Below, in pieces: positions 3,173-17,134 of a stretch of DNA of 64,000 bases. The notes beneath the pieces are model-generated. The model did no database searches. It was not told the DNA's origin and saw only the letters and a list, made by a program, of their open reading frames with translations. The stretch comes from Gammaproteobacteria bacterium (GTDB lineage: Bacteria; Pseudomonadota; Gammaproteobacteria; Eutrophobiales; Eutrophobiaceae): assembly GCA_965221695.1 (NCBI GenBank), contig OZ244905.1, positions 1,376,001-1,440,000 on the forward strand, given 5' to 3'. Numbering within the stretch: position 1 is the stretch's first letter; each line of letters begins with the position of its first letter. The translations under genes and the position numbers were made by a program.

Positions 3173-4527
3173 ACCCCGGCGAAAAAATACTTGTCGTTGA
3201 TGATGAGGCAGAGATCAGGAACCTGATCCGGGAGATCCTTGAAGACGAGGGATTCGAGGTTGCGACTGCGGATAACGGCGCCGGCGCGCGGGCGCTGCTG
3301 GAACAGTTTCGGCCCAGGCTGGTGCTGCTGGATATCTGGATGCCGGACATGGATGGCATTACCCTGTTGAAGGAATGGCATGAGTCAGGCAAGCTGACCC
3401 ATCCCGTCATCATGATGTCCGGGCACGGGAACATTGGCACTGCGGTCGAGGCCACGCGGCTCGGCGCTTACGATTACCTGGAAAAACCCCTGTCCATGGC
3501 CAAGTTGACCCTGACGATAAAAAATGCGCTGGACGCATCCAGGTTGCGCAGGGAAAATCTGAGGCTGCGCAGACACTCGCAGGAGCCGCACCGTGTTATC
3601 GGCAAAAGCAAGCCGATGACAAAACTGCGCGCACAGTTGAACAAGGTTGCCGGCTTGGATACCCCGATACTGATCATCGGCGAACCCGGCACGGACAAAG
3701 AGGCCGTCGCCCGCCACTTGCATGCAGCCAGCGCGCGCAAGGACAAATCCTTTGTCACCATGACCGTACCGGTCAAGGATCAAGAATCCGTGATCAACGA
3801 GTTGTATGGCGAACAGACCGGGACCGGGACCCAGGGCGGCTTCTTAGATGAGGCTGAAGGAGGAACACTGTTCATCAAGGATATTGCCGATATGAACCTC
3901 GCAACGCAGGCGCGCCTGCAAGACACACTGAAGAGCCAGACCTACAAACGAGTCAACGGCGCCGCAACGATCCCGCTTAATACCAGGATCATCGCTGCCA
4001 CCCGCTACAACCTTGCCGACCGGGTTAAGGACGCGGCGTTCATGGACGAACTTTTTTTCCAATTGAACGTGCTGCCGATAAGCGTGCCGCCGCTCAGGGA
4101 ACACTATGAAGATGTGCCCGATATCCTGGAATATTTCGTCACCTGGTTTATCGAGCGGGAAGGGTTGCCATACCGGTCCTTTTCCACTGCGGCGCAAAAC
4201 AGGCTGCGCCGCTATCCCTGGCCCGGAAATACCCGGGAGTTAAAAAATCTTGTGCAAAGAATGCTGATAACGGGCGGAGCTGCGACCATCGACCTGGATG
4301 AAGTTGAGGCGGCGTTGGGAGATGCGCCGGCAAGAAGAGACACCGAAAGTGTGAAAAACCTGGACCTCCCGTTGCGCCAGGCGCGGGAAAACTTTGAGCG
4401 CGACTACCTGGAATACCAGTTGAAACTGGCCAATGGCAGCGTCAGCAAAATGGCCAGGAACGTACACATGGAACGCACCCATCTATACAGGAAGCTTAAG
4501 GCTCTGGGCATCAACATAAAATCGTGA
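3169..4527 (+). CDS. ntrX: NtrX-like response regulator (REC, degenerate AAA+, Fis-type HTH)
   Basis: LLDIWMP receiver, WPGNTREL, MERTHLYRKLK HTH; coupled to ntrY by ATGA. Confidence 0.9.
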   Translation: MNPGEKILVVDDEAEIRNLIREILEDEGFEVATADNGAGARALLEQFRPRLVLLDIWMPDMDGITLLKEWHESGKLTHPVIMMSGHGNIGTAVEATRLGAYDYLEKPLSMAKLTLTIKNALDASRLRRENLRLRRHSQEPHRVIGKSKPMTKLRAQLNKVAGLDTPILIIGEPGTDKEAVARHLHAASARKDKSFVTMTVPVKDQESVINELYGEQTGTGTQGGFLDEAEGGTLFIKDIADMNLATQARLQDTLKSQTYKRVNGAATIPLNTRIIAATRYNLADRVKDAAFMDELFFQLNVLPISVPPLREHYEDVPDILEYFVTWFIEREGLPYRSFSTAAQNRLRRYPWPGNTRELKNLVQRMLITGGAATIDLDEVEAALGDAPARRDTESVKNLDLPLRQARENFERDYLEYQLKLANGSVSKMARNVHMERTHLYRKLKALGINIKS

Positions 4528-5897
4528 AGATCATCATTCTCGGGGCCGGACAGGTCGGTTCATCCGTAGCCGCCAATCTTTGCAGTGAGGCCAATGACAT
4601 CACCGTCATCGACCGCAACCCGGCGGTCCTGCGCAACCTGCAGGAACGGCTGGACCTGAAGACAGTAACTGGCTCAGCATCCCATCCCTCGATCCTGGAC
4701 CAGGCCGGCGCGCGCGACGCGGACATGATCATCGCAGTCACTAACAGCGATGAAACCAACATGGTGGCCTGCCAGGTTGCCTACACTGTGTTTCATACGC
4801 CGACCAAAATTGCGCGCGTACGCAACAACGAATACCTAAGCAGCGAGCGGCTGTTTGCGCTGGAGGCCATGCCGGTTGATGTCCTGATCAGCCCAGAACA
4901 GGTCGTGACAGAATATATCGCCCGCTTGATCGACTTTCCCGGCGCTCTCCAGGCGCTTGATTTCGCCTCCGGCCGTGTGCAGATGGTGGCAGTAAAAATG
5001 ACCCATGAAAGCGTGTTCGCCGGCAAAAAGATCAGTGACCTGGCCGGGCACATGCCGAAAATCGAATTTCGTATCGCTTCGATCTTTCGCGGCGGTAGGG
5101 CAATCATCCCCGACGGTGACACCGAAATCCTTGCCGATGACGAGGTGTTCATCATCGGCGCGCCAAAGCATATCAAGAACCTGTTGAAATCGGCCAAGCA
5201 GACCGAAAAACCGGCAAAGCGTATTATCATTGCCGGTGGCGGTAACATCGGCCGGCGCCTGGCAAAGCTGCTGGAAAACAGGTATCAGGTCAAGGTCATC
5301 GAACTGTCGGCTGACATTGCGCAAAAGGCCGCGGAAGAACTGAACAACGCCATCGTGCTCAATGGAGACGCCGCGGACGAGGAACTGCTGAACGAGGAAA
5401 ACATCGACAGCGCCGATGTCTTCTGCGCACTGACCAATGCTGACGAAGCCAACATCATTTCCTGCATGCTGGCAAAGCGTCTGGGCGCGCATAAGGTTAT
5501 GGCCCTGATTAACCGGGCGGCCTATGTCGACCTGGTACAAAGCGATGTCATCGATATTGCCATCTCGCCACAACAGGCGACCATCGGCAGCCTGCTCGCG
5601 CATATTCGAAAAGGCGATGTGGTCGTGGTGCATTCACTGCGGCGCGGCGCGGCGGAAGCCATCGAGGCCATCGCCCACGGCGACCGAACGACCTCCAATG
5701 TTGTCGGCAGGACCATTGAGGAAATCTCCCTGCCACCGGACACCAGCATCGGCGCGATAGTGCGGGACGATACTGTGATCATCGCCCATCACGACACGGT
5801 CATCGCATCGGAGGACCATGTCATCCTGCTGGTAGGCGACAAAAAACGCGTGCCGGAGGTGGAACGACTGTTCCAGGTCAGGATTACCTTCCTCTGA
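4524..5897 (+). CDS. trkA: Trk potassium uptake NAD-binding subunit
   Basis: MKIIILGAGQVG, second GGGNIG RCK motif, LRRGAAEAIE; 457 aa. Confidence 0.95.
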   Translation: MKIIILGAGQVGSSVAANLCSEANDITVIDRNPAVLRNLQERLDLKTVTGSASHPSILDQAGARDADMIIAVTNSDETNMVACQVAYTVFHTPTKIARVRNNEYLSSERLFALEAMPVDVLISPEQVVTEYIARLIDFPGALQALDFASGRVQMVAVKMTHESVFAGKKISDLAGHMPKIEFRIASIFRGGRAIIPDGDTEILADDEVFIIGAPKHIKNLLKSAKQTEKPAKRIIIAGGGNIGRRLAKLLENRYQVKVIELSADIAQKAAEELNNAIVLNGDAADEELLNEENIDSADVFCALTNADEANIISCMLAKRLGAHKVMALINRAAYVDLVQSDVIDIAISPQQATIGSLLAHIRKGDVVVVHSLRRGAAEAIEAIAHGDRTTSNVVGRTIEEISLPPDTSIGAIVRDDTVIIAHHDTVIASEDHVILLVGDKKRVPEVERLFQVRITFL

Positions 5898-5908
5898 CCC
5901 GCTGCACG

Positions 5909-6148
5909 TTACGGGCGAGCAATCTCTCCTATAACTTCGCCAACAGGGTAGGTTTCTCCTTCCTGTCCGATGCGTTTGAGCATCCCATCAGCGGGCGCTT
6001 CCACATCCACCGCGGTTTTTTCTATCTCCAGTGAATACAGGGGTTCTCCTTCGCTGACCTGGCTGCCATCATCTGCATACCATTCCAGAAGAACACCATT
6101 TTGCATGGACACCGCCATCTTGGGAATCCGTAAAGTTATCAGTGACAT
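5909..6148 (-). CDS. Stand-alone lipoyl/biotinyl carrier domain protein (lipoyl-like)
   Basis: 79 aa; W...DG..V.EGEPLY.LEIEKTAVDVEAPADG pattern. EIEKT resembles lipoyl ExDKA rather than biotin AMKM. Confidence 0.85.
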   Translation of the reverse strand: MSLITLRIPKMAVSMQNGVLLEWYADDGSQVSEGEPLYSLEIEKTAVDVEAPADGMLKRIGQEGETYPVGEVIGEIARP

Positions 6149-6168
6149 GAAAGTACTCTCAATATTTG

Positions 6169-8193
6169 TCAGTTTGCCATAAGTTCTGCCGCCGCGATTC
6201 TTATCTTCTCAGCGTCAGGAAAGTAATGCTGTTCAAGTTCCCGCGCAAATGGCACGGGCGCATACGCCGCGGCAACCCGGGCTACGGGCGCTTTCAGTTC
6301 ATTATGCAGGCTGCGGTGTATCAGCGCGGCCAACTCTGCGCCGAAGCCACAGAACTCCACCGCAGAATGGGCAACAACAGCTCTTCCGGTCCTGGACACC
6401 GACGCCAGGATTGCTCCATGATCCAATGGCGCCAGGGTACGCAGATCCAGCACTTCGGCGCTGATTCCATCGTCCATCAATATCGCAGCAGCGGAAAGCG
6501 CTTCGGGAACCATCCAGCCATAGCACAGGATTGTAAGATCTGAACCTGCACGTTTTACATCTGCCACTCCCAGCGGGATCCGGTAATCGCCTGCAGGCAC
6601 GGGGCCGGAATTGAAGTACAGCCGCATGCTCTCAAAGAACACACATGGGTCATCGTCATAGATACAACTGAGCAGCAGTCCTTTAGCTTCCGCCGGGGTA
6701 GAGGGATAAACCACCTTCAGTCCGGGAGTATGCGTTAACCAGCCTTCCAGAGACTGGGAGTGCTGGGCGCCAAAGCTGCCGACATTGCCTGCCGTCATAG
6801 TTCTGATTGTCAGCGGCGCGCCGGTCCGACCGCCGGACATGTAGCGCAGTTTGGCCACATGGTTGGCAAGCTGGTCCATGCACACTGCTAGAAAGTCGTT
6901 GATCATAATCTCGGCGACCGGTCTCATACCTGCCATCGAAGCCCCCAAGGCCGCGCCGACGATGGCCTGTTCCGCAATCGGCGTGGGTCGTACACGGTCG
7001 AGCCCATGTTTTGTCGATAAGCCGGCGGTGGCTTTGACAACACCGCCGGCGGGATCATGTATGTCCTCACCCAACAGGAATACACTATCATCCTGGGCCA
7101 GGGCGAAATCAAGAGTATGGTTGACCGTTGCACAGAAGTTCATTTCCTTGCTTTCCCCGCTCGGTTGCTCAGGGGTGTCCGGCGCAGCAGCAGCATGGTA
7201 CGGCACCTGCGCGGCGTCGGCGAACACGTCAATATACAACTCCTCTTGGCCAGGGGGTGAAGCAGACAACGCAAAATCTATCGCTTCATCAACCTCGGCG
7301 CGCGCATCCGCTTCCAACGCGGCCAGCGCCTGCTCATCCACCACACCGGCCTGCAGGATTCGCTGCCGAAAGTTTGGCAGCGGCGCGTGTTTGAGCGCTG
7401 TCTCCAGCGCTTCCTGGTCCATGTGGGACTCCTCACTGCCGAAAGCATGGCCTTGTAACCGATGGCATATTGCTTCGACCAGGGTTGGTCCCTCACCGGC
7501 GCGCGCCCGTTGTGCGGCGGCCGTCAGCGCGTGCATCATCGCCACGGGGTCTGTCCCGTCCACCTGCTCTCCGCGCATGGCATAGGCTTGCGCCCGGCTG
7601 GCGATGTCAGGGTTGCGCGTATACTCCGACAACGCCGTATACTCTGCATACTGGTTGTTCTGACAGATGAAAATTACCGGCAGGTTCCACAATGACGCCA
7701 GGTTAAGCGCCTCGTGAAAAGCGCCGATACTGGAGGCTCCATCACCGAAACAAACCGCGGCGACACGATCCTCGCCGCGCAGGACACCAGCCAGGGCAAG
7801 ACCATTGGCGACCGGCAGGCCGGAGCCCACTATGCCCGTTGTCATCATCAATCCCACAGCGGGGTCGGACAGGTGCATGGGGCCGCCTTTACCTTTGGAA
7901 GTACCATTCACGCGCCCGTATAATTCCGCCATGATTTCCCGCATCGGTGTGCCTTTGGCCACGATATCGTGGATACCGCGATAAGTCGTCAGCAGATAAT
8001 CCCTTTCTGTCAGCGCGATGGAAATGCCGGCGGCAATAGCCTCCTGCCCACCACAGGGATAATATTGAAACTGGATGTCTCCTGCGCTCAGTCCCCGTTT
8101 AATCGCGTCGTCTGCTGCAGCGACGCGAACCATTGTTTTGTACAATGCGACACACACTTTGTCTGCGGGGAGATCTGTTTGTTTATTTTTCAT
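6169..8193 (-). CDS. Fused E1 alpha/beta ThDP-dependent 2-oxoacid/acetoin dehydrogenase-like protein
   Basis: KGKGGPMH; GDGA...NN ThDP motif; beta half GEDI, TPIAEQAIVG, GAQHSQSLE; start set at MKNKQ (8193). Confidence 0.9.
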   Translation of the reverse strand: MKNKQTDLPADKVCVALYKTMVRVAAADDAIKRGLSAGDIQFQYYPCGGQEAIAAGISIALTERDYLLTTYRGIHDIVAKGTPMREIMAELYGRVNGTSKGKGGPMHLSDPAVGLMMTTGIVGSGLPVANGLALAGVLRGEDRVAAVCFGDGASSIGAFHEALNLASLWNLPVIFICQNNQYAEYTALSEYTRNPDIASRAQAYAMRGEQVDGTDPVAMMHALTAAAQRARAGEGPTLVEAICHRLQGHAFGSEESHMDQEALETALKHAPLPNFRQRILQAGVVDEQALAALEADARAEVDEAIDFALSASPPGQEELYIDVFADAAQVPYHAAAAPDTPEQPSGESKEMNFCATVNHTLDFALAQDDSVFLLGEDIHDPAGGVVKATAGLSTKHGLDRVRPTPIAEQAIVGAALGASMAGMRPVAEIMINDFLAVCMDQLANHVAKLRYMSGGRTGAPLTIRTMTAGNVGSFGAQHSQSLEGWLTHTPGLKVVYPSTPAEAKGLLLSCIYDDDPCVFFESMRLYFNSGPVPAGDYRIPLGVADVKRAGSDLTILCYGWMVPEALSAAAILMDDGISAEVLDLRTLAPLDHGAILASVSRTGRAVVAHSAVEFCGFGAELAALIHRSLHNELKAPVARVAAAYAPVPFARELEQHYFPDAEKIRIAAAELMAN

Positions 8194-8215
8194 GATCGTA
8201 ATATTTCTATTTGAT

Positions 8216-9043
8216 TTACAATGCGCGGGAAAAGTCTGCTGTTTCAACCCGCCGACTCATGGCTCGCTTCCTATAGCCGCCTACCACTGATTTAATCAGC
8301 TTTACAATTTCCGTTTCCATTTTACGGATACGCGTTGCCAGCCCGCCGACCGCAATAATCAGATTATTTTCCATGGGTTCATCGTGTAGCGGCATTGCTA
8401 TCGCGCCGGTGTCGGGCAGCACCCGGTTATAGAAATTGGCATAACCCAACTGTCTCACACTGGCCACCTCGCGGCGCATGCGAGCCTGGTCTTGCTCGTC
8501 CACAGCCCGGCCCTCATCCAAACCTTTATAACGTCTGTATAAATCATTGATAGCCGGATTGGATAACGTAGACAGGTAGGCAGCGCCAACTGAAGTGCCG
8601 AAAATCGGCGCCAAAAATCCCCTGGCAATGATAAGCGATATCGGAAATTTTCCGGGCAGCACTTTTACGAATTGCATGTTGCTTCCGTTACGCATGGACA
8701 GGGTAACGGTTTCACCCGTCGTTTCATGTAACTGCTCCAGCAGGTTGTCGACTTCGCGCTTGTCTATCAGCGCATGCGACACCCAGTCACTCAGATAAGC
8801 CACCCTGAATGACGGGAAATATTTCAGGGTATCCAAATCAATCGTCAGGTAACCCAATGCAACCAGACTCTTCAAAATAGCGTTCGTGCTTGATTTTGGA
8901 TAATCCAGCCGGCGTGAGATATCCATGCCTGTTAATGGAACCTTCATGGAGGAAAACAGCTCCAGAATTTCCATTACCCGTGCCGCCGACTTTACCAGGC
9001 CGTCTTCACGTTTTTGCCCTGTTCTACTTTCTACCGTAATAAT
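8216..9043 (-). CDS. IclR family transcriptional regulator (start uncertain)
   Basis: VKSAARVMEILELF...PKSSTNAILKSL..LGYL HTH, TGETVTL, TSVG; the frame stays open upstream of ATG 8974 to a possible ATT at 9043. Confidence 0.85.
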   Translation of the reverse strand: MITVESRTGQKREDGLVKSAARVMEILELFSSMKVPLTGMDISRRLDYPKSSTNAILKSLVALGYLTIDLDTLKYFPSFRVAYLSDWVSHALIDKREVDNLLEQLHETTGETVTLSMRNGSNMQFVKVLPGKFPISLIIARGFLAPIFGTSVGAAYLSTLSNPAINDLYRRYKGLDEGRAVDEQDQARMRREVASVRQLGYANFYNRVLPDTGAIAMPLHDEPMENNLIIAVGGLATRIRKMETEIVKLIKSVVGGYRKRAMSRRVETADFSRAL

Positions 9044-9065
9044 GGTGAATTCCTCACGAAATAGT

Positions 9066-9081
9066 GTTCACGAATATGAAC
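9066..9081. promoter_or_regulatory. Candidate IclR operator palindrome GTTCA-N6-TGAAC
   Basis: gttcacgaatatgaac between the divergent IclR and TonB receptor genes. Confidence 0.45.
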
Positions 9082-9161
9082 CTGCATTGCATATATATGT
9101 AAACTAGCATAAGCTGTCTTCTGATTAAAGTCAAGAAGCGCTTAAACCAAGCACTTAAACT

Positions 9162-9270
9162 AAGGAACTTTTAATTGAGCCGGTAATTGAGCCGGAGTAT
9201 CTCTGACAAGTCTTGGATAGACATGTTCGGAACTCCCTTAATTTCAGGTTCCTATCGTAGAGAGATGTTC
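9162..9270. repeat. Decayed copy of the five-hairpin element
   Basis: ctctgacaagtcttggatagacatgttcggaactccc (9201-9237) versus ctctgacaagtccaggatggacttgttcagagtttccc at 60711-60748; flanking ctaaggaac and caggttccta. Confidence 0.6.
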
Positions 9271-9317
9271 CGTTAACCTGTCTCTGATGAGGAGGAAACA
9301 TCCAGGGGTATAAAGCC

Positions 9318-11537
9318 ATGCACAAATCACTAAAAGCAGTTAACTGCCTGCGTACAAGCAACATTATGATGGTCCTCGGTCTGCTGGTCTTATGGACAGG
9401 ACAGGCACGAACCCAAAGCGATGTATTGGAAGAAATAGTGGTCACCGCGGAGAGGCGCGCGGTCAGCATGCAGGACACCGCTATCTCCATCACGGCATTC
9501 ACGGGAGAACAACTGGCCAGGGCCGGTATTGAAACATCCGAACAACTTACAGGTTTCACACCTGGTCTTAATATACAACGGGATGTAATTGGCAAAGTGG
9601 TTATGCGCGGCATCGGCACCGAGAATTTTACCGTCGCCGGCGACCCGGGCGTTGCGGTCTCCATCGATGGCGCCTACCTGTCCCGCTCCAATGTAGCCAT
9701 ATTTGACCTCTATGACCTGGACCGCGTTGAAGTCCTGCGAGGGCCGCAAGGCACGCTTTATGGCCGTAATGCAACCGGCGGGGCGATAAACTTCATCACC
9801 GAAAAACCGACTCAAGAGTTGGCCGGATACATCTCCGCGGAGTACGGCAACTACGATAAAATCCGGGTGGAAGGCGCGATCAGCGGCCCTCTGGGTGAGC
9901 ACGTCAGGGCGCGCCTGTCCGGATTGACCCACCATCGCGATGGCTTTACCGACAACGTGTTTCCAGGTATCGGCGCTGGTCTGGACGAACTGGATGACAA
10001 GGATCTGTGGGCGCTGCGCGGACAACTGGAGTTCCGCCCTTCCGAAACACTATCCATCCTGGTCTCAGTCGATAATTACGAAGACGACAGCATCGCGTCA
10101 CCCTATAAGTACATCGCGGACCCGCTGATTTATTTCGGCGGGGCGCCTTTCCCGAACCCGCTTCAGAGCGACTTGTTCACCGTATCACAGGGCTATGAAC
10201 TGGACACACCCGGATTCCCGGACTGGCGCGCGCCAAGCCCGGGCCAGGCATCACAGACAGGCGCCAGCGGCACGATCACCTGGGATGTAACACCGGGTCT
10301 GACTGTGAAGTCGATCAGCGCCTGGCGGGATATCAGTTTTGAATGGTTGAATGACGGCGACGGCATTGAGGCTTACCTGGTGAATTACTGGCAGGACGAT
10401 TCTTCCGAGCTGTTCACCCAGGAAGTCCAGTTGCTTTCGGATACCGGCGGAAGACTGAGTTGGATCATTGGTGGATATTTGCTGACAGAGGATTCGGACT
10501 CCCGCATCGGCATCCCGTTGCCTTTGGGCGCGGGTCTGCCGCTGGCAGTGCTGATCGAAGGCTCCACAGAAACAGACGCTTATGCGGTATTCGGTGAAGC
10601 CAGTTATAACGTTTTCGAGCGGCTGAAAGCAACGGCCGGTTTGCGTTACAGTTACGAAGAAAAATCCGCGGATTATGTGGACGATCGCACCTCGTTGGGC
10701 GCGCCCGCACCCGGGATGATCGATGATTCCGATAGTTGGAGCGCCTTTACCCCGAAGTTCGGCCTGGACTACTTCATCAACGATGACATTATGCTCTATG
10801 GCTCGGTTACCTGGGGTTTCAAGAGCGGCGGCTTCAATATGCTTGCAATACAACCGAGTTATAATGAGGAAGAGGTGATCAGTTACGAAGTCGGTTTCAA
10901 GAGCCGTTTCAACCAGGACCGCACCCAACTGAACGCATCCGCATTCTACTATGATTATGAGGATTTGCAGGTAGGCAAGGTGGTGGAACTCAACGCCACT
11001 ATCGAGAACGCCGCGCAAGCAACCATCTATGGCGCCGAGATAGAGCTGGATACCTTGCTCACGGAACAATTCAGAGTATCTGCCGGCGTTTCCATCCTGG
11101 AAACCGAATACGACAGTTTTATCACAGAGGACAAAGACTTGTTCGGCGCTCCTTCAGTGAGCCTGAAAGGTAATGAATTGCCGCGCGCGCCTAATTTTAC
11201 CAGTTCCGTCAGCGCGCAATACATCCTGCCGTTGGGCGCAATGGGTGAACTGGAGGCGTGGTTCAACTGGCAGCATACGGGCAGCCAGTATTTCACGCCT
11301 TTCAACAGGGCTAGCTTCAAGCAGGATTCCTATGACCTGATTAACGCCAGGGTCAGTTACAAGGCGACCGAAAACTGGGAGATATCGGTCTATGGCCAAA
11401 ACCTGAGTGACGAGGAGTATTTTACCAATGCCCTCGAATCCGGTGTGCCGACGCCGGGAGTGGATCGTGTCGTCCCGCAATTCTTTGTCGGCGCGCCGAG
11501 AACCTACGGAGTCAGGATCAGGTATCTGTTTAACTGA
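9318..11537 (+). CDS. TonB-dependent receptor
   Basis: LEEIVVTAERR TonB box, RVEVLRGPQGTLYGRNATGGAINF plug motif, C-terminal PRTYGVRIRYLF. Confidence 0.95.
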   Translation: MHKSLKAVNCLRTSNIMMVLGLLVLWTGQARTQSDVLEEIVVTAERRAVSMQDTAISITAFTGEQLARAGIETSEQLTGFTPGLNIQRDVIGKVVMRGIGTENFTVAGDPGVAVSIDGAYLSRSNVAIFDLYDLDRVEVLRGPQGTLYGRNATGGAINFITEKPTQELAGYISAEYGNYDKIRVEGAISGPLGEHVRARLSGLTHHRDGFTDNVFPGIGAGLDELDDKDLWALRGQLEFRPSETLSILVSVDNYEDDSIASPYKYIADPLIYFGGAPFPNPLQSDLFTVSQGYELDTPGFPDWRAPSPGQASQTGASGTITWDVTPGLTVKSISAWRDISFEWLNDGDGIEAYLVNYWQDDSSELFTQEVQLLSDTGGRLSWIIGGYLLTEDSDSRIGIPLPLGAGLPLAVLIEGSTETDAYAVFGEASYNVFERLKATAGLRYSYEEKSADYVDDRTSLGAPAPGMIDDSDSWSAFTPKFGLDYFINDDIMLYGSVTWGFKSGGFNMLAIQPSYNEEEVISYEVGFKSRFNQDRTQLNASAFYYDYEDLQVGKVVELNATIENAAQATIYGAEIELDTLLTEQFRVSAGVSILETEYDSFITEDKDLFGAPSVSLKGNELPRAPNFTSSVSAQYILPLGAMGELEAWFNWQHTGSQYFTPFNRASFKQDSYDLINARVSYKATENWEISVYGQNLSDEEYFTNALESGVPTPGVDRVVPQFFVGAPRTYGVRIRYLFN

Positions 11538-11566
11538 TACCTGATACGGACCTTGCGCGCATCGTC

Positions 11567-12385
11567 ATGGCCTACTACCAACTCACGGATGGTGTTCCTG
11601 TCTACTACATTGATCAGGGAAGCGGACGACCGCTGGTATTGCTGAATGCGCTGATGTTCTCAGCCGATTATTTCTGGCAGAAAAATCTGCCGGAACTGGC
11701 CGCACAGGTCCGGGTTATCGCGCCGGATCTACGCGGCCAGGGACTCAGCGGCAAACCCAATCATGGCTATACGATTAAGCAACTTGCCAGTGACTTGCAT
11801 GAGTTGCTTGAACATTTGGACCTGAATGATATTGTGCTGCTCGGTTATTCCCTCGGCGGATTCGTCGCGTTACAGTATCTTGCCGATTATTCCAGCGCGC
11901 GCACAGGCCATCTGGCGCTGATGGAAATGACACCGAGGCTTCCCTCCACCGAGGGCTGGGAACACCCGACCTTCGGAGACTTCCCCAAGGACGCTGCAGA
12001 CGCTTATGGCGCTTCATTACGCAAGGACCGCTCCATCTACGACGATTTTTTTCAGGCAGCCTTCCTGGAACCACCGACAGGTGATGCTCTCCTGGAGATG
12101 GTTGCCCAGACCTGGCTTACCCCCACCGACGTCGCAGCCACCATGATCGATGAAATGGTAAAACAGGATTGGCGTGCGCATCTTAGCGGCATCACCGTAC
12201 CGACCACCTTGTTATACAGCTATCCCAATAACAGGATTTTGCCAACACCGGTAGGACAATGGATGGCAGAACAAATACCTGGCGCTTCGCTGGCGCTGTT
12301 TGACAAAAGCAGCCACGCGCCATTCTGGGAAGAGCCGGAAAAATTCAACCGGTCGCTGTTGGCCATATCAGCTTCCGCACAATAA
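11567..12385 (+). CDS. Alpha/beta fold hydrolase (arylesterase/perhydrolase-like)
   Basis: DLRGQGLS, GYSLGG nucleophile elbow, SSHAPFWEEPEKFN. Confidence 0.85.
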   Translation: MAYYQLTDGVPVYYIDQGSGRPLVLLNALMFSADYFWQKNLPELAAQVRVIAPDLRGQGLSGKPNHGYTIKQLASDLHELLEHLDLNDIVLLGYSLGGFVALQYLADYSSARTGHLALMEMTPRLPSTEGWEHPTFGDFPKDAADAYGASLRKDRSIYDDFFQAAFLEPPTGDALLEMVAQTWLTPTDVAATMIDEMVKQDWRAHLSGITVPTTLLYSYPNNRILPTPVGQWMAEQIPGASLALFDKSSHAPFWEEPEKFNRSLLAISASAQ

Positions 12386-12399
12386 CCTTTACCTCGGCA

Positions 12400-13074
12400 A
12401 TGAACACGGCGCCCAGTTTCCTCTATTTGCAGCTATCCGGAACCGGTAGCAATATGGCTTACCTGGATGCGCTGCAAGAATTGCTTGCCACAGAGTCATG
12501 CAGGTTGCTTGGAACAGGCGACCGCGCCACAGTAGAATGCCTGGAGGCCGGCACACCGCCGGCAGAGCTTGCGCTGTTCCGGTTTGAGGACGCGCAACTG
12601 GCCAGGGAACTGTGGAACAGCGATGCCAACCAGCACCTGCTTGCCGCCAACGGGCTGGCTGACGATCCCGGAACATTGGCATTGCTGGCGCCGGGATTAC
12701 CCCACATCGGTCTGCCGGAAACGCCCGAAATACCCACTATCGCATCGGTTGAACCGCCGGCCGGAAGAGGCCCCCGCTGTTATATGGTCATCCAGGGAAC
12801 CGGCACGGACCAGGCCAGGATGGACAGGTACCGGGACATCATCCTGCCAATGATGGCGGAATTGGGCAGCTTCTACATTGCTTTCAACATCGGAGGAGGA
12901 ACCGATGTGCTTGCCGGAACCTGGCCCTGGGAGATTTTTGCCGTTTCCCGCTGGCCGGATTACCGCGCCGGACACGATTTCTGGGATTCTGATCGCTACC
13001 GCAATGTGGCAATACCCTTGCGTACCGGCGCAGGGACATTTCATGTACACTTTTTCAAGGGTGAAACTGACTGA
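12400..13074 (+). CDS. DUF1330 family protein, apparently two tandem domains
   Basis: C-half VLAGTWP....VSRWPD...GHDFWDSDRY...IPLR; N-half ECLE......ALFRFEDAQLARELWNS. Confidence 0.7.
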   Translation: MNTAPSFLYLQLSGTGSNMAYLDALQELLATESCRLLGTGDRATVECLEAGTPPAELALFRFEDAQLARELWNSDANQHLLAANGLADDPGTLALLAPGLPHIGLPETPEIPTIASVEPPAGRGPRCYMVIQGTGTDQARMDRYRDIILPMMAELGSFYIAFNIGGGTDVLAGTWPWEIFAVSRWPDYRAGHDFWDSDRYRNVAIPLRTGAGTFHVHFFKGETD

Positions 13075-13113
13075 GCACCCAGAAACTGGTAAGCCGTTAA
13101 CCGTTACAATTCC

Positions 13114-14007
13114 ATGGCCGGATATATCGACATCGTATGCAACCTTTACACGCCCCGGGTGGTTGCCGAGGGCCGCGACGGTCTTGACAGCGCGTTCAAA
13201 TCCCAGGTGCGGATGCCGCAAGCGATCCGGGGAGGCGTGACCATTGAGGACTACCTGAATAAAATGGACAGGTCTGGCGTCGAACTCTCGTTCCTCATTG
13301 CCGTTCGAGGAGGCGACCTGCGCATGGAAGGTTCATTTGAAGTGCCTTACCAGTATGTGATGGATGTTTGCAGCGAATATCCCGACAGGTTTGCGGGAAT
13401 TGCAGGCATAGATCCCATGCGCGGCATGAAGGGGCTGAAAGAACTTGAGATTGCAGTAACCGACCTTGGTTTCATCGGCGCGCATTGGTATCCGCACTGG
13501 TTCAATATGCCGCCGGATGCCGCGCAGATATACCCGTATTACGCCAAGTGCTGCGAGCTCGATATACCAATCATGTTGCAGGTGGGACAGAATCTCGTAT
13601 ACAGCAGGGACAGACGGCTGCTCAGTGTCGCCCGGCCCATTACCCTGGACGCAGTTGCCTGTGATTTCCCCGAACTCAAACTCATCGGGATCCATATTGG
13701 CGTGCCATGGACTGAGGAAATGATCGCGATGGCATGGAAACATGAGAACGTCTTCATCGGCTCCGATGCGTATGCGCCAAAACACTGGCCGCGCGAATTT
13801 ATTCATTATGCGAACACCTATGGAAAGGAAAAGGTGTTGTTTGGCACGGATTGGCCCGTGATTGATCCTGAACGCGCGGTGAGTGAAGTAACAGAGCTTG
13901 GTTTCCGGGATGAATCCTTTTCTTTGTTGATGCGCGACAATGCGCGGCGTGTTTTCGGATTAGCGAATAGCGCAGCTCAACCGCGCAAGGCTGGTTTGCA
14001 GACCTGA
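13114..14007 (+). CDS. Amidohydrolase_2 family metallohydrolase/hydratase/decarboxylase
   Basis: YPDRFAGIAGIDP, YPYYAKCCELDIP, DFPELKLIGIHIGVPW, KVLFGTDWP. Confidence 0.85.
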   Translation: MAGYIDIVCNLYTPRVVAEGRDGLDSAFKSQVRMPQAIRGGVTIEDYLNKMDRSGVELSFLIAVRGGDLRMEGSFEVPYQYVMDVCSEYPDRFAGIAGIDPMRGMKGLKELEIAVTDLGFIGAHWYPHWFNMPPDAAQIYPYYAKCCELDIPIMLQVGQNLVYSRDRRLLSVARPITLDAVACDFPELKLIGIHIGVPWTEEMIAMAWKHENVFIGSDAYAPKHWPREFIHYANTYGKEKVLFGTDWPVIDPERAVSEVTELGFRDESFSLLMRDNARRVFGLANSAAQPRKAGLQT

Positions 14008-14019
14008 CGGGAGCCACGG

Positions 14020-15570
14020 ATGATTGCAGATCCGACTGTTGTTACCGATACGCCGCCATCCGTTGCGACCGCTATAGCGCAAAACGCCGCCCGCGACCCC
14101 GACAAAGTCGCCGCCGAGGATCGTTTTCGAAAGGTCAGTTACTCTGCGCTCAGCAAACGCATAGCGGCCGCGGCAACGATGGCATTCCGGGAACCGCTGC
14201 TTGCCGGCGGGCAGCATTGCGGCATCCTGTCAAAAAACCGCATCGAATATATCGAACTCGTCGCCGGCCTGCCTGAGGCCCGCATTGCCGCAACCACCAT
14301 CAATCCCCTGCTGTCTCCCCGTGAGATACAAGAGATATGTGATGACGCAAGGGTAAAGGTACTATTTGTTGACCCACCCAATGAGTCGGTTGTTTCCGGC
14401 TTAACATTTGCTACGGTTGAAAAAACGATCGTTTTTGGCAGCCAATATGAATCCTGGCTGGCGCAGGCGGAACACGGACTGCGGCTGCCTGGCGCTGACC
14501 AGGAGCGTCCGTTCACAATTCCGTACACCTCCGGGACTACCGGAAAACCCAAAGGCGTGTTGGTTTCGATGCGTTCCAGGGTAAGAACGTTTTCCGGCAT
14601 GCAGTCCTGTTACGGCTGTTTCGGCCCGGATGACCGTTTCCTTGCGTTGGCGCCACTATGTCATGGAGCGGGCCTGCTGTTTCCACTCGCTGCCGTATAT
14701 TTTGGCGGTTTCACCCGGATACTGGATGCTTTTGACCCGGAACAGGTTCTCAGGCTGTTGAATGAAGATTCCATAAGCGGTGTGTTTATGGTGCCCACGC
14801 ATTTTCATCGTATCTTCGCGCTTGAGGATAACCTGCTCAGGAAGATGTCACCCTATCGCTGTTTGCGAACCATCATATCCAACGCGGCGCCGCTGCCGCA
14901 AGCGTTCAAGGAAAGGATCATCGCTTATTTCGGCGAAGGGTTGCTGCACGAGACCTACGGCTCCACGGAGGGCGGTATCGTCTCCAACCTGCAACCTGCT
15001 GACCAGTTGCGCAAATTCCAATGCGTCGGGCAGCCTTTTCCGAATACCGAAATAAGTATTCGAGACGAGAACGGCGCGGAATGCGCTGCAGGGGAAATCG
15101 GCGAATTGTTTTCCCGAAGTCCTTACCTGTTTAACGGTTATTGGCAACGGAACAGCGAAACTGAACAAGCGCTAAGAGACGGCTGGTGCACCGTAGGCGA
15201 CCTCGCCCGTTTTGATGATGAAGGCCATGTTTATATTGTTGACCGGAAAAAAGACATGATCATCACCGGCGGCATTAATGTTTACCCCCGGGAGATAGAG
15301 GAAACCCTGCTCAGGCACACCGATATCGTAGATGCCGCGGTGGTCGGCGTCGCAGATGACAAATGGGGAGAAAGAATCAAGGCATTTGTGGTAACCCGCG
15401 ATGGCGCGCCGCCGAATGAGGCAGAACTCCGCCAACACTGCGAAACGACTCTTGCCAGGTTCAAAACGCCGGCGGAAATCCAAGCGATAAATCAAATTCC
15501 CCGAAATGCCTCCGGCAAAATATTGAAAACGGAACTGCGCAAACTCCAAGATAATGTAACCGCTGATTAA
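14020..15570 (+). CDS. Acyl-CoA synthetase / class I adenylate-forming enzyme
   Basis: YTSGTTGKPKG, YGSTEGG, GD....D...IVDRKKDMII, PRNASGKILK. Confidence 0.92.
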   Translation: MIADPTVVTDTPPSVATAIAQNAARDPDKVAAEDRFRKVSYSALSKRIAAAATMAFREPLLAGGQHCGILSKNRIEYIELVAGLPEARIAATTINPLLSPREIQEICDDARVKVLFVDPPNESVVSGLTFATVEKTIVFGSQYESWLAQAEHGLRLPGADQERPFTIPYTSGTTGKPKGVLVSMRSRVRTFSGMQSCYGCFGPDDRFLALAPLCHGAGLLFPLAAVYFGGFTRILDAFDPEQVLRLLNEDSISGVFMVPTHFHRIFALEDNLLRKMSPYRCLRTIISNAAPLPQAFKERIIAYFGEGLLHETYGSTEGGIVSNLQPADQLRKFQCVGQPFPNTEISIRDENGAECAAGEIGELFSRSPYLFNGYWQRNSETEQALRDGWCTVGDLARFDDEGHVYIVDRKKDMIITGGINVYPREIEETLLRHTDIVDAAVVGVADDKWGERIKAFVVTRDGAPPNEAELRQHCETTLARFKTPAEIQAINQIPRNASGKILKTELRKLQDNVTAD

Positions 15571-15682: not shown

Positions 15683-17134
15683 ATGCAACTCCTTGTCATC
15701 CAGAAAATTCTCGGGCTGCTGCTGATGCTGTTCAGCGTGACTATGCTGCCGCCGCTGAGCATTGCGCTGTGGTACGAGGATAAGACAGTCAAGACATTTA
15801 TGCTGTGTTTCATGCTGATACTCAGCATCGGCGCGTTTCTGTGGCTGCCGGTGCGTAAGGTCAGCAAGGAGCTGCGCCTGCGGGACGGTTTCATCGTCGT
15901 GGTATTGTTCTGGGCAGGATTGGGACTGATCGGCGCGCTGCCGTTCCTGCTTGCATCCGACCCCGATATGTCATTTACCGATTCGCTGTTTGAATCCGTT
16001 TCCGGTCTGACTACCACCGGCGCCACGGTGATGACCGGTCTTGACCAACTGCCGAAATCCATCCTGTTCTACCGCCAGGAACTGCAATGGCTCGGAGGAA
16101 TGGGGATCATAGTCCTGGCAGTGGCAATCCTGCCGATGCTTGGTATCGGTGGAATGCAGTTATACCGTGCGGAAACACCGGGACCTATCAAGGACTCCAA
16201 GCTGACACCCCGAATCACCGAGACCGCGAAGGCGCTCTGGTACATCTACCTGTCCCTGACCATCGCCTGCGCGCTGATGTACTGGCTTGCCGGGATGTCG
16301 CCGTTCGATGCGATCAGCCACAGTTTCTCCACGGTCTCGATAGGCGGATTTTCGACCCACGACCAAAGCATCGGCTACTTCGACAGTGAATTGATCAACG
16401 CCGTAGCGGTAGTGTTCATGCTGATTGCCGGCATCAATTTCACGCTGCATTTCATCGGTTGGCGATCCATGAGCCTGAACACCTACCGGAAGGACTCCGA
16501 GGTGAAAGCATTTGTCGGCGTTCTTCTTGGTCTGTGCGTAATCAGTTGCGTCTACCTGGGCTTGAAGGCGACTTACGACGACGCCCTGGGCACGATCAGC
16601 CATGGCGTGTTCCAATCCGTATCCATCGCCACAACCACCGGTTTTACCACCGCCGCCTACCAGGACTGGCCAACATTCCTGCCGGTGCTGCTGATCTTTG
16701 CCAGTTTCATCGGCGGCTGCGCCGGTTCCACGGGCGGCGGGCTGAAGGTGATCCGGGTGGTGCTTCTTTACAAGCAGGGCAAGAGGGAAATCAGACGCCT
16801 CGTCCACCCGAATGCCATCATCCAAATCAAACTCGCCGGTAAACCGGTCGATGAATCCGTCATCAACGCAGTCTGGGGTTTCTTTGCCGCCTATGTGGCC
16901 GTGTTCGCATTGATGCTGATCCTGCTGATGGCTACCGGCCTGGACCAGATCACGGCTTTTTCCGCGGTGGCCGCCTGCCTCAACAACCTGGGGCCCGGCC
17001 TCGGCGAGGTCGGCGCCAATTACACCGGGATCAGCGACATGTCCAAATGGCTGCTGTGCCTGGCCATGCTGCTGGGAAGGCTGGAAATCTTCACCTTGCT
17101 GGTACTGTTGACGCCTGTCTTCTGGCGCAGGTAA
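15683..17134 (+). CDS. trkH: Trk potassium uptake permease
   Basis: FESVSGLTTTGAT, QWLGGMGII, GGCAGSTGGGLK, NNLGPG, GRLEIF. Confidence 0.95.
   Translation: MQLLVIQKILGLLLMLFSVTMLPPLSIALWYEDKTVKTFMLCFMLILSIGAFLWLPVRKVSKELRLRDGFIVVVLFWAGLGLIGALPFLLASDPDMSFTDSLFESVSGLTTTGATVMTGLDQLPKSILFYRQELQWLGGMGIIVLAVAILPMLGIGGMQLYRAETPGPIKDSKLTPRITETAKALWYIYLSLTIACALMYWLAGMSPFDAISHSFSTVSIGGFSTHDQSIGYFDSELINAVAVVFMLIAGINFTLHFIGWRSMSLNTYRKDSEVKAFVGVLLGLCVISCVYLGLKATYDDALGTISHGVFQSVSIATTTGFTTAAYQDWPTFLPVLLIFASFIGGCAGSTGGGLKVIRVVLLYKQGKREIRRLVHPNAIIQIKLAGKPVDESVINAVWGFFAAYVAVFALMLILLMATGLDQITAFSAVAACLNNLGPGLGEVGANYTGISDMSKWLLCLAMLLGRLEIFTLLVLLTPVFWRR

Follow-up and report, generated by a model that had tools for sequence, protein, structure and literature searches.

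How does an E1 enzyme of the 2-oxoacid dehydrogenase type work when the genes around it supply a free lipoyl domain and neither an E2 acyltransferase core nor an E3 dihydrolipoamide dehydrogenase? The question is raised by an eight-gene cassette in a 64,000-nucleotide stretch of DNA (the window; contig OZ244905.1 of assembly GCA_965221695.1, positions 1,376,001 to 1,440,000) from a gammaproteobacterium of the family Eutrophobiaceae. The cassette sits between trkA and trkH and is made of two units: the lipoyl domain, a fused E1 and an IclR regulator on the minus strand, divergent from a TonB receptor, an alpha/beta-hydrolase, a tandem DUF1330 protein, an amidohydrolase and a coenzyme A (CoA) ligase on the plus strand. 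It is real and conserved. The reading favored here, held tentatively and at a little under an even chance, is that it is a deconstructed 2-oxoacid/acetoin-type dehydrogenase, in which the E1 acylates the free carrier, a housekeeping E2 unloads it to CoA and the single E3 of the cell re-oxidizes it. The host genome is a single contig of 3.54 Mb, 96.85% complete, and its closest named relatives are uncultured gammaproteobacterial metagenome-assembled genomes. Checks of open reading frames (ORFs) and domains found all eight genes and both flanks where the original prediction had placed them. The genes of the cassette, with positions counted in the window, are as follows.

5909..6148, minus strand: stand-alone lipoyl domain, 79 aa, with Lys44 in an E-x-E-K turn (PF00364)
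6169..8193, minus strand: fused E1 alpha+beta thiamine diphosphate (ThDP) enzyme, 674 aa, ATG at 8193 and frame open to 8247 (PF00676+PF02779+PF02780)
8216..9043, minus strand: regulator of the IclR family (PF09339+PF01614), with its first ATG at 8974 and a non-AUG start predicted near 9043
9318..11537, plus strand: TonB-dependent receptor (PF00593+PF07715)
11567..12385, plus strand: alpha/beta-hydrolase-fold protein with a non-canonical site, Ser95, Glu120, Asn222 and His250 (homolog alignment; model of pLDDT 92.6)
12400..13074, plus strand: double-length (tandem) DUF1330 protein (PF07045 on the C-terminal half)
13114..14007, plus strand: Amidohydro_2 TIM barrel without the usual N-terminal HxH metal motif, D-I-V-C-N standing there (domain match, alignment, model and fold search)
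14020..15570, plus strand: AMP-forming acyl-CoA ligase-family enzyme (PF00501+PF13193)

Judged by alignment, the catalytic motifs of the E1 are intact. The GDG..NN ThDP motif, the alpha-loop His and the beta His are kept in 120/120 E1 homologs, and the beta Glu motif, searched as a strict pattern, in 108/120. The ATG at 8193 is the likely start, as the resulting 674 aa equals the length of the nearest homologs. The ORF of the lipoyl domain ends 12 nt from the trkA stop. Its Lys44 is invariant in 26 aligned carriers and is preceded by Glu where Asp is usual. The LipA and LipB genes are present in the host genome, and Lys44 is the predicted site of lipoylation. The canonical E2 has lipoyl domain, binding domain and acyltransferase core on one chain; here the carrier is a free protein of 79 residues. 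No PF00198 match and no E3 lie between trkA and trkH, as had been predicted, and the genome's own copies map elsewhere.

Relatives were gathered from genome contigs, metagenomes (79 loci), plasmids (8 of 841 matching records inspected) and whole genomes, and 113 loci were scored. Loci with an E1 of at least 56% identity were called close (n=63), those at 45-56% distant (n=50), and those with 5 kb or more on each side well-flanked; the set includes near-duplicates, and the figures are counts, not statistics. Among the 63 close loci the carrier is found in 61 (both misses are contig-truncated), an E2 core in one (L142) and an E3 in none. The 26 well-flanked close loci have the carrier in 26, DUF1330 in 21, IclR in 18, the TonB receptor in 18, the amidohydrolase in 16, the ligase in 16, the hydrolase in 15, and an E2 core or E3 in none. 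The expectation that these genes co-occur elsewhere without E2 and E3 is thus borne out. The cassette recurs in many uncultured bacteria with its gene order reshuffled into several arrangements, which argues for selection on co-location.

The E2-free arrangement of the close loci does not extend to the sister E1s at 45-56% identity, which often have a lipoyl-less (bare) E2 core beside the carrier (10/50 distant loci; 7/18 of the well-flanked). No accessory ortholog over threshold was found in these 50 loci. The bare core directly follows the carrier in Paraburkholderia and Diaphorobacter, and in Azospirillum B510 a ligase follows the carrier where the others have the bare core. Distant relatives thus often keep a separate lipoyl-less E2 core, which points to a split E2 as the family norm. 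In a tree of 62 E1 alpha parts, 8 of the 9 bare-core loci form one sister group beside the cassette E1s, with weak support (65). L142 is the sole full cassette with a lipoyl-less E2 core, which stands directly after the ligase with its DHR motif intact (L142:1479-2315); for the way the carrier is unloaded, its strain offers a natural comparison. Together, the sister loci and L142 make E2-type transfer the documented partner chemistry of this E1 family. A different E1 locus in a relative of the same genus adjoins a bare E2 core of 236 aa (G046:C1:237700-240611).

The host has three full-length E2s, those of pyruvate dehydrogenase (PDH), branched-chain 2-oxoacid dehydrogenase (BCKDH) and, judged by its neighbors, 2-oxoglutarate dehydrogenase (OGDH). 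All three have a lipoyl domain, and the binding domain was seen in both of the two inspected. A lipoyl-less E2 elsewhere in the genome, which might have partnered this E1, was looked for and is not present: the genome-wide PF00198 matches are these three, each with its lipoyl domain. One E3 over cut-off lies outside the cassette, so an E3 is available as in a canonical complex; a second candidate at C1:509635 was rejected, its match being under the cut-off. With no bare core in the host, the acylated carrier probably turns to housekeeping E2 and E3 in trans. Among the host E2s that of PDH is the candidate partner: three bare cores that were compared show 49-53% identity to it and 32-43% to the other two. 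Some cassette genomes have a short E2 frame elsewhere (G046, G471, G563). Support for the borrowing of a housekeeping E2 comes from G194 and G228, one contig of about 3.5 Mb each, which keep an E1 at 67% identity and the carrier with no hydrolase and no short E2 frame, all their E2 frames being at least 398 aa.

Precedents exist for parts of this arrangement. An isolated lipoyl domain is a substrate of E1, whose recognition is domain-specific, and the E3 is shared, with no lipoyl-domain specificity (PMC6270654). A specialized E1 would therefore keep a private carrier, and the second orphan E1 of the host also has its own, differing from the cassette carrier (35% identity). Human 2-oxoadipate dehydrogenase E1a (DHTKD1) works with the E2o and E3 of OGDH, and E2o forms C4-C6 acyl-CoAs (PMC9367764). 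The likeness is that of a specialized E1 using the E2 and E3 of another complex; DHTKD1 differs in being homodimeric, in working through the lipoyl arm that belongs to the host E2 and in having no private carrier.

The favored pathway can be laid out as follows. Gene content, E1 motifs, carrier lysine, LipA/LipB, three E2s and one E3 were seen directly, and the steps built on them are conditional. The TonB receptor would import a compound, and IclR would control both divergent units. The DUF1330 protein and the non-canonical hydrolase would convert the compound to a 2-oxo acid or an acyloin/diketone, a role that ADC-family, isochorismatase-like or VOC proteins may take in other genomes. The E1 would reductively acylate its own carrier, which would serve as an adaptor to the shared E2 and E3. 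A housekeeping E2 core, with PDH E2 as the candidate, would move the acyl group to CoA, and the single E3 would re-oxidize the carrier. The ligase-amidohydrolase pair would be a general lower module acting on the related acid and its CoA ester.

A number of points weigh against this pathway. Acceptance of the carrier by a housekeeping E2 core is a prediction, and the tethered lipoyl arms of an assembled complex would compete with a free carrier. A bulky acyl group would fit the PDH core poorly: E2 cores discriminate against longer acyl groups, and a single added carbon slows E2o about 83-fold (PMC9367764). Loss of the bare core in 62/63 close loci could equally fit another release route, and the amidohydrolase, present (E<=1e-140) in 8/9 E1-bearing genomes of one sampled gammaproteobacterial order even when unlinked, could provide it. 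Finally, the counted loci are not independent.

Release by the amidohydrolase is one alternative. The enzyme, lacking its metal motif, would detach the carrier-bound acyl group (or free CoA or a thiol would do so non-enzymatically), the ligase would re-activate the acid and only the E3 would be borrowed. Besides its distribution in the sampled order, the amidohydrolase is found in 3/3 Sphingomonadaceae genomes with an E1 at 59-60% identity versus 0/6 with an E1 at 48-53%, and it stands beside the ligase in 34/36 genome loci; pairs of a ligase and an acyl-CoA-cleaving hydrolase are known, HpeE/HpeF and CouL/CouO (PMC9618137). However, it occurs with no such E1 in 57/242 other genomes, which means that its main substrate is independent of the carrier, and it has no characterized close homolog, the best PDB match being the uncharacterized BB4693 at 23%. 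This route is rather unlikely. A different release was proposed in the original prediction. On this route the alpha/beta-hydrolase would be a thioesterase that strips the carrier of its acyl group, so that the two would resemble AcoC, a lipoyl-plus-hydrolase protein, in split form. The host copy keeps Ser95 at the nucleophile elbow together with His250, the gene is in 15 of the 26 well-flanked loci, and carrier and hydrolase both match the AcoC model NF011457. These matches are far below the cut-off (62 and 67 bits against 307) and come from separate divergent genes, and that of the hydrolase covers residues 11-118 only and scores below its PcaD match. The elbow Ser is Ala in 17/20 cassette-linked orthologs and in 69/120 homologs (Ser in 51/120), and the catalytic Asp is Asn in 119/120. 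The gene is missing from 11 of the well-flanked loci and unmatched in six genomes that have E1 and carrier (G127, G220, G139, G130 and the single-contig G194 and G228). With the family lacking a Ser-His-Asp triad, the hydrolase is an unlikely substitute for E2 and the route as a whole is very improbable, although the host copy, given its Ser95, may have a lineage-specific thioesterase activity.

The carrier itself might be dispensable, with the E1 directly acylating the lipoyl arms that a housekeeping E2 carries, as human E1a does with the E2 of another complex (PMC9367764), or acting as a non-oxidative decarboxylase or lyase. Three well-flanked distant loci have no carrier match, which fits; the retention of the carrier, lysine invariant, in all well-flanked close loci and the separate, different carrier of the host's second orphan E1 do not, and this explanation is quite unlikely. 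E1-plus-lipoyl units without an E2 also occur in natural-product pathways, of which the literature search returned none, and the acylated carrier could feed a biosynthetic or detoxifying step, e.g. transfer to another acceptor, in place of energy catabolism. Fusion of the carrier to a VOC domain in several loci is in line with this. No NRPS, PKS or ACP gene is among the annotated neighbors, the arrangement of TonB receptor and divergent IclR is that of a catabolic locus, and the idea is highly doubtful. A broader proposal joins the unusual features of the cassette: a heterocyclic nutrient would be opened by a new nucleophile-free alpha/beta-hydrolase-fold family, possibly cofactor-free dioxygenases or decarboxylases, and an enzyme of the cassette, with the amidohydrolase as the most plausible one, would unload the E1-acylated free carrier in an E2-independent lipoate pathway. 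This is a speculative proposal and on balance improbable. If true, a new kind of lipoate-dependent system would join LbpA and the five classical systems, and the catabolic route, so far undescribed, would be widespread among uncultured bacteria.

The amidohydrolase and ligase are a separate, commoner module. In the sampled order the module is found in 65/251 genomes versus 9/251 for the E1, with both in 8 of the 9, and of 126 genomes in the order of the host, 6 have the amidohydrolase and just 4 the E1 ortholog. The ligase is therefore not dedicated to the product of the E1, and the predicted role as a dedicated activating step was abandoned, since it travels with the amidohydrolase in the far commoner module. 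The pair is also close together in 4/4 plasmid loci at about 50% identity. An HxH metal motif after strand 1 is the mark of the Amidohydro_2 metallo-enzymes (ACMSD/LigJ/LigW group). The cassette protein has the TIM barrel of that group without the HxH; V-C-N stands at its position in 118/120 homologs, and His194 and Asp246 are kept in 120/120. In several genomes (L304-L309) the pair occurs with DUF4437 cupin, DsbA/HCCA-isomerase-like, molybdopterin oxidoreductase and bilin-reductase-like genes, and the host has a paralogous pair, 50% identical, beside a TRAP transporter-like gene set (G000:C1:2490822-2493150). A flavoprotein beside the amidohydrolase, labeled an amino-acid oxidase by BLAST, was rejected as such, its Pfam family being FAD_binding_2.

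The predicted model of the hydrolase has the alpha/beta-hydrolase fold (Foldseek TM ~0.87; Z 36, root-mean-square deviation 1.9 and 265 residues aligned to 5h3h), and among the matches listed those nearest in sequence and fold are aryl esterases and non-haem haloperoxidases. Instead of the conserved Ser-His-Asp triad of serine esterases and thioesterases, alignment and model point to another pattern: a Ser-or-Ala elbow, His250 (120/120 homologs) and Glu/Asp120 (120/120), the last following the model's strand at 113-119 (beta6). In the HOD/QDO/AqdC dioxygenases a Ser-or-Ala elbow goes with a His-acid pair and no covalent nucleophile (PMC10548524), and the tomato decarboxylase MKS1 has an Ala-His-Asn triad (PMC11644291). 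The likeness to these enzymes in the site residues (Ser/Ala95, Glu/Asp120, Asn222, His250) is an analogy, possibly convergent, and not membership. Esterases make up most of the matches listed in the sequence and fold searches, and HOD, AqdC and MKS1 are absent among these listed matches, though kinship with them may exist. Atlas searches gave only Pfam families already known. The family profile matched 8/20 E1-bearing genomes searched, and the plasmid search gave no hydrolase ortholog above ~33% identity. G194 and G228, which have no hydrolase, carry ADC-family, isochorismatase-like, VOC and GMC genes. A strict replacement of the hydrolase by ADC-family genes was considered and given up, as L253 has both.

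The substrate, in agreement with the original prediction, cannot be read from the sequence. No substrate class is assigned because all NCBIfam E1 and E2 matches of the cassette are below cut-off; the PDB matches of the E1 are generic. Aroylpyruvates, flavonols, bilins and N-heterocycles were considered, but these guesses are based on variable neighbors only and are not claimed.

The cassette shares with PDH, BCKDH and the acetoin system AcoABCL the E1 alpha/beta domains, the ThDP motif, the catalytic His and Glu and the lipoyl lysine at its turn. It differs from them in the fused alpha/beta chain, the free 79-aa lipoyl protein with no binding domain or core, and the lack of an E3 in the cluster. 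In Haloferax volcanii the oadh2 cluster reportedly (Wanner and Soppa, 2002) consists of an E1 and an unattached lipoyl domain with no E2 core or E3. That cluster is archaeal, has separate alpha and beta genes and other neighbors, and is likened here by layout, not by sequence. A table in PMC8305020 gives no identified substrate for its oadhAB2. GcvH and LbpA are likewise free single-domain lipoyl carriers (PMC6067878); they belong to the GcvH-like type and function in glycine cleavage or sulfur oxidation, whereas the carrier of the cassette is of the E2 type and linked to an E1. CouO has an amidohydrolase fold. The CouL/CouO and HpeE/HpeF pairs, of a ligase with a beta-ketoacyl-CoA hydrolase, resemble the lower module in setting a CoA ligase beside a CoA-ester-cleaving hydrolase (PMC9618137); the cassette differs in its HxH-less amidohydrolase and in having no hydratase or dehydrogenase, and the likeness is by description, not by sequence. 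A literature search, with subscription literature mostly outside its scope, found no study of the cassette.

On the favored reading, the textbook E1-E2-E3 machine would be used as loose parts, a specialized E1 with a private 79-residue adaptor. Such a pair would be a cheap way to add substrates, and the host has two. The unloading of an acylated free lipoyl domain in vivo becomes testable. In addition, the conserved pathway brings together three uncharacterized families with odd features: a nucleophile-optional hydrolase, an HxH-less amidohydrolase and a double-length DUF1330 protein.

The cassette interrupts a pair of genes that are usually neighbors.

4524..5897, plus strand: trkA, left flank, outside the cassette (NF007032 over cut-off)
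15683..17134, plus strand: trkH, right flank, outside the cassette, ATG at 15683 and frame open from 15665 (TIGR00933 over cut-off; junction comparison)

Of 23 genus genomes searched, 22 have a trkA match, and in 17 of these trkH follows within 1.5 kb, which bears out the view that adjacency is the usual state and is broken here. The cassette follows trkA in three (the host G000, G054 and G046) and neither does in the remaining two. Third-codon GC is 0.49-0.65 in the eight cassette genes versus 0.70-0.76 in five flanking genes. An empty site in relatives and an atypical composition, both marks of a mobile island, are thus present. No integrase or transposase is among the scanned ORFs, and the boundary comparison gave no convincing boundary or att repeat; the locus is therefore an inserted cassette, not shown to be a mobile element. 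In the trkA tree the three cassette genomes need at least two changes, and G046 clusters with the cassette-free G052 and G039. The history is either one gain with several losses or transfer from lineage to lineage into one and the same site, and local identity does not tell the two apart. Raised identity near the junction, sought as a sign that G000 and G046 had recombined, was rejected, as the values are like those of other genomes.

Of the accessory genes, DUF1330 is the one most tightly tied to the E1. It is present in 7/9 E1 genomes versus 3/242 others, by a profile built partly from those genomes' own sequences; the plasmid search gave no DUF1330 match. In ten loci (L141, L143, L144, L147, L148, L149, L152, L180, L185 and L252) the carrier continues into a C-terminal VOC/glyoxalase-like domain, giving fusion proteins of ~253-261 aa. 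The VOC domain occupies the position of the E2 core, and its metal ligands look degenerate in most.

Several observations concern other E1 genes. The second E1 of the host (G000:C1:653845-656080; L084:9846-12081) has separate alpha and beta genes and its own 80-aa free lipoyl domain, with no E2. It is adjoined by a TonB receptor, two sulfatases and a VOC gene, and related E1s are found in other genus genomes. At L168:17848-20113 and L265:16325-18574 a second E1 alpha/beta with a lipoyl-domain match lies within 8 kb of the first. In two metagenome contigs (L169:5294-7319 and L178:3-1936) the fused E1 is split into two or three ORFs, by sequencing error, decay or re-splitting.

The two units are separated by one further feature.

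9044..9317, no strand: AT-rich divergent intergenic region, candidate operator, with two short tandem direct repeats (9136-9161 and 9172-9195)

Promoter and terminator scans gave no signal above shuffled sequence, and the repeats are possibly regulator sites or chance. Upstream of the first IclR ATG, coding sequence and a GAGG motif are both conserved in 4/4 orthologs (8974-9067, minus strand), and translation of the regulator probably starts at a non-AUG codon near 9043.

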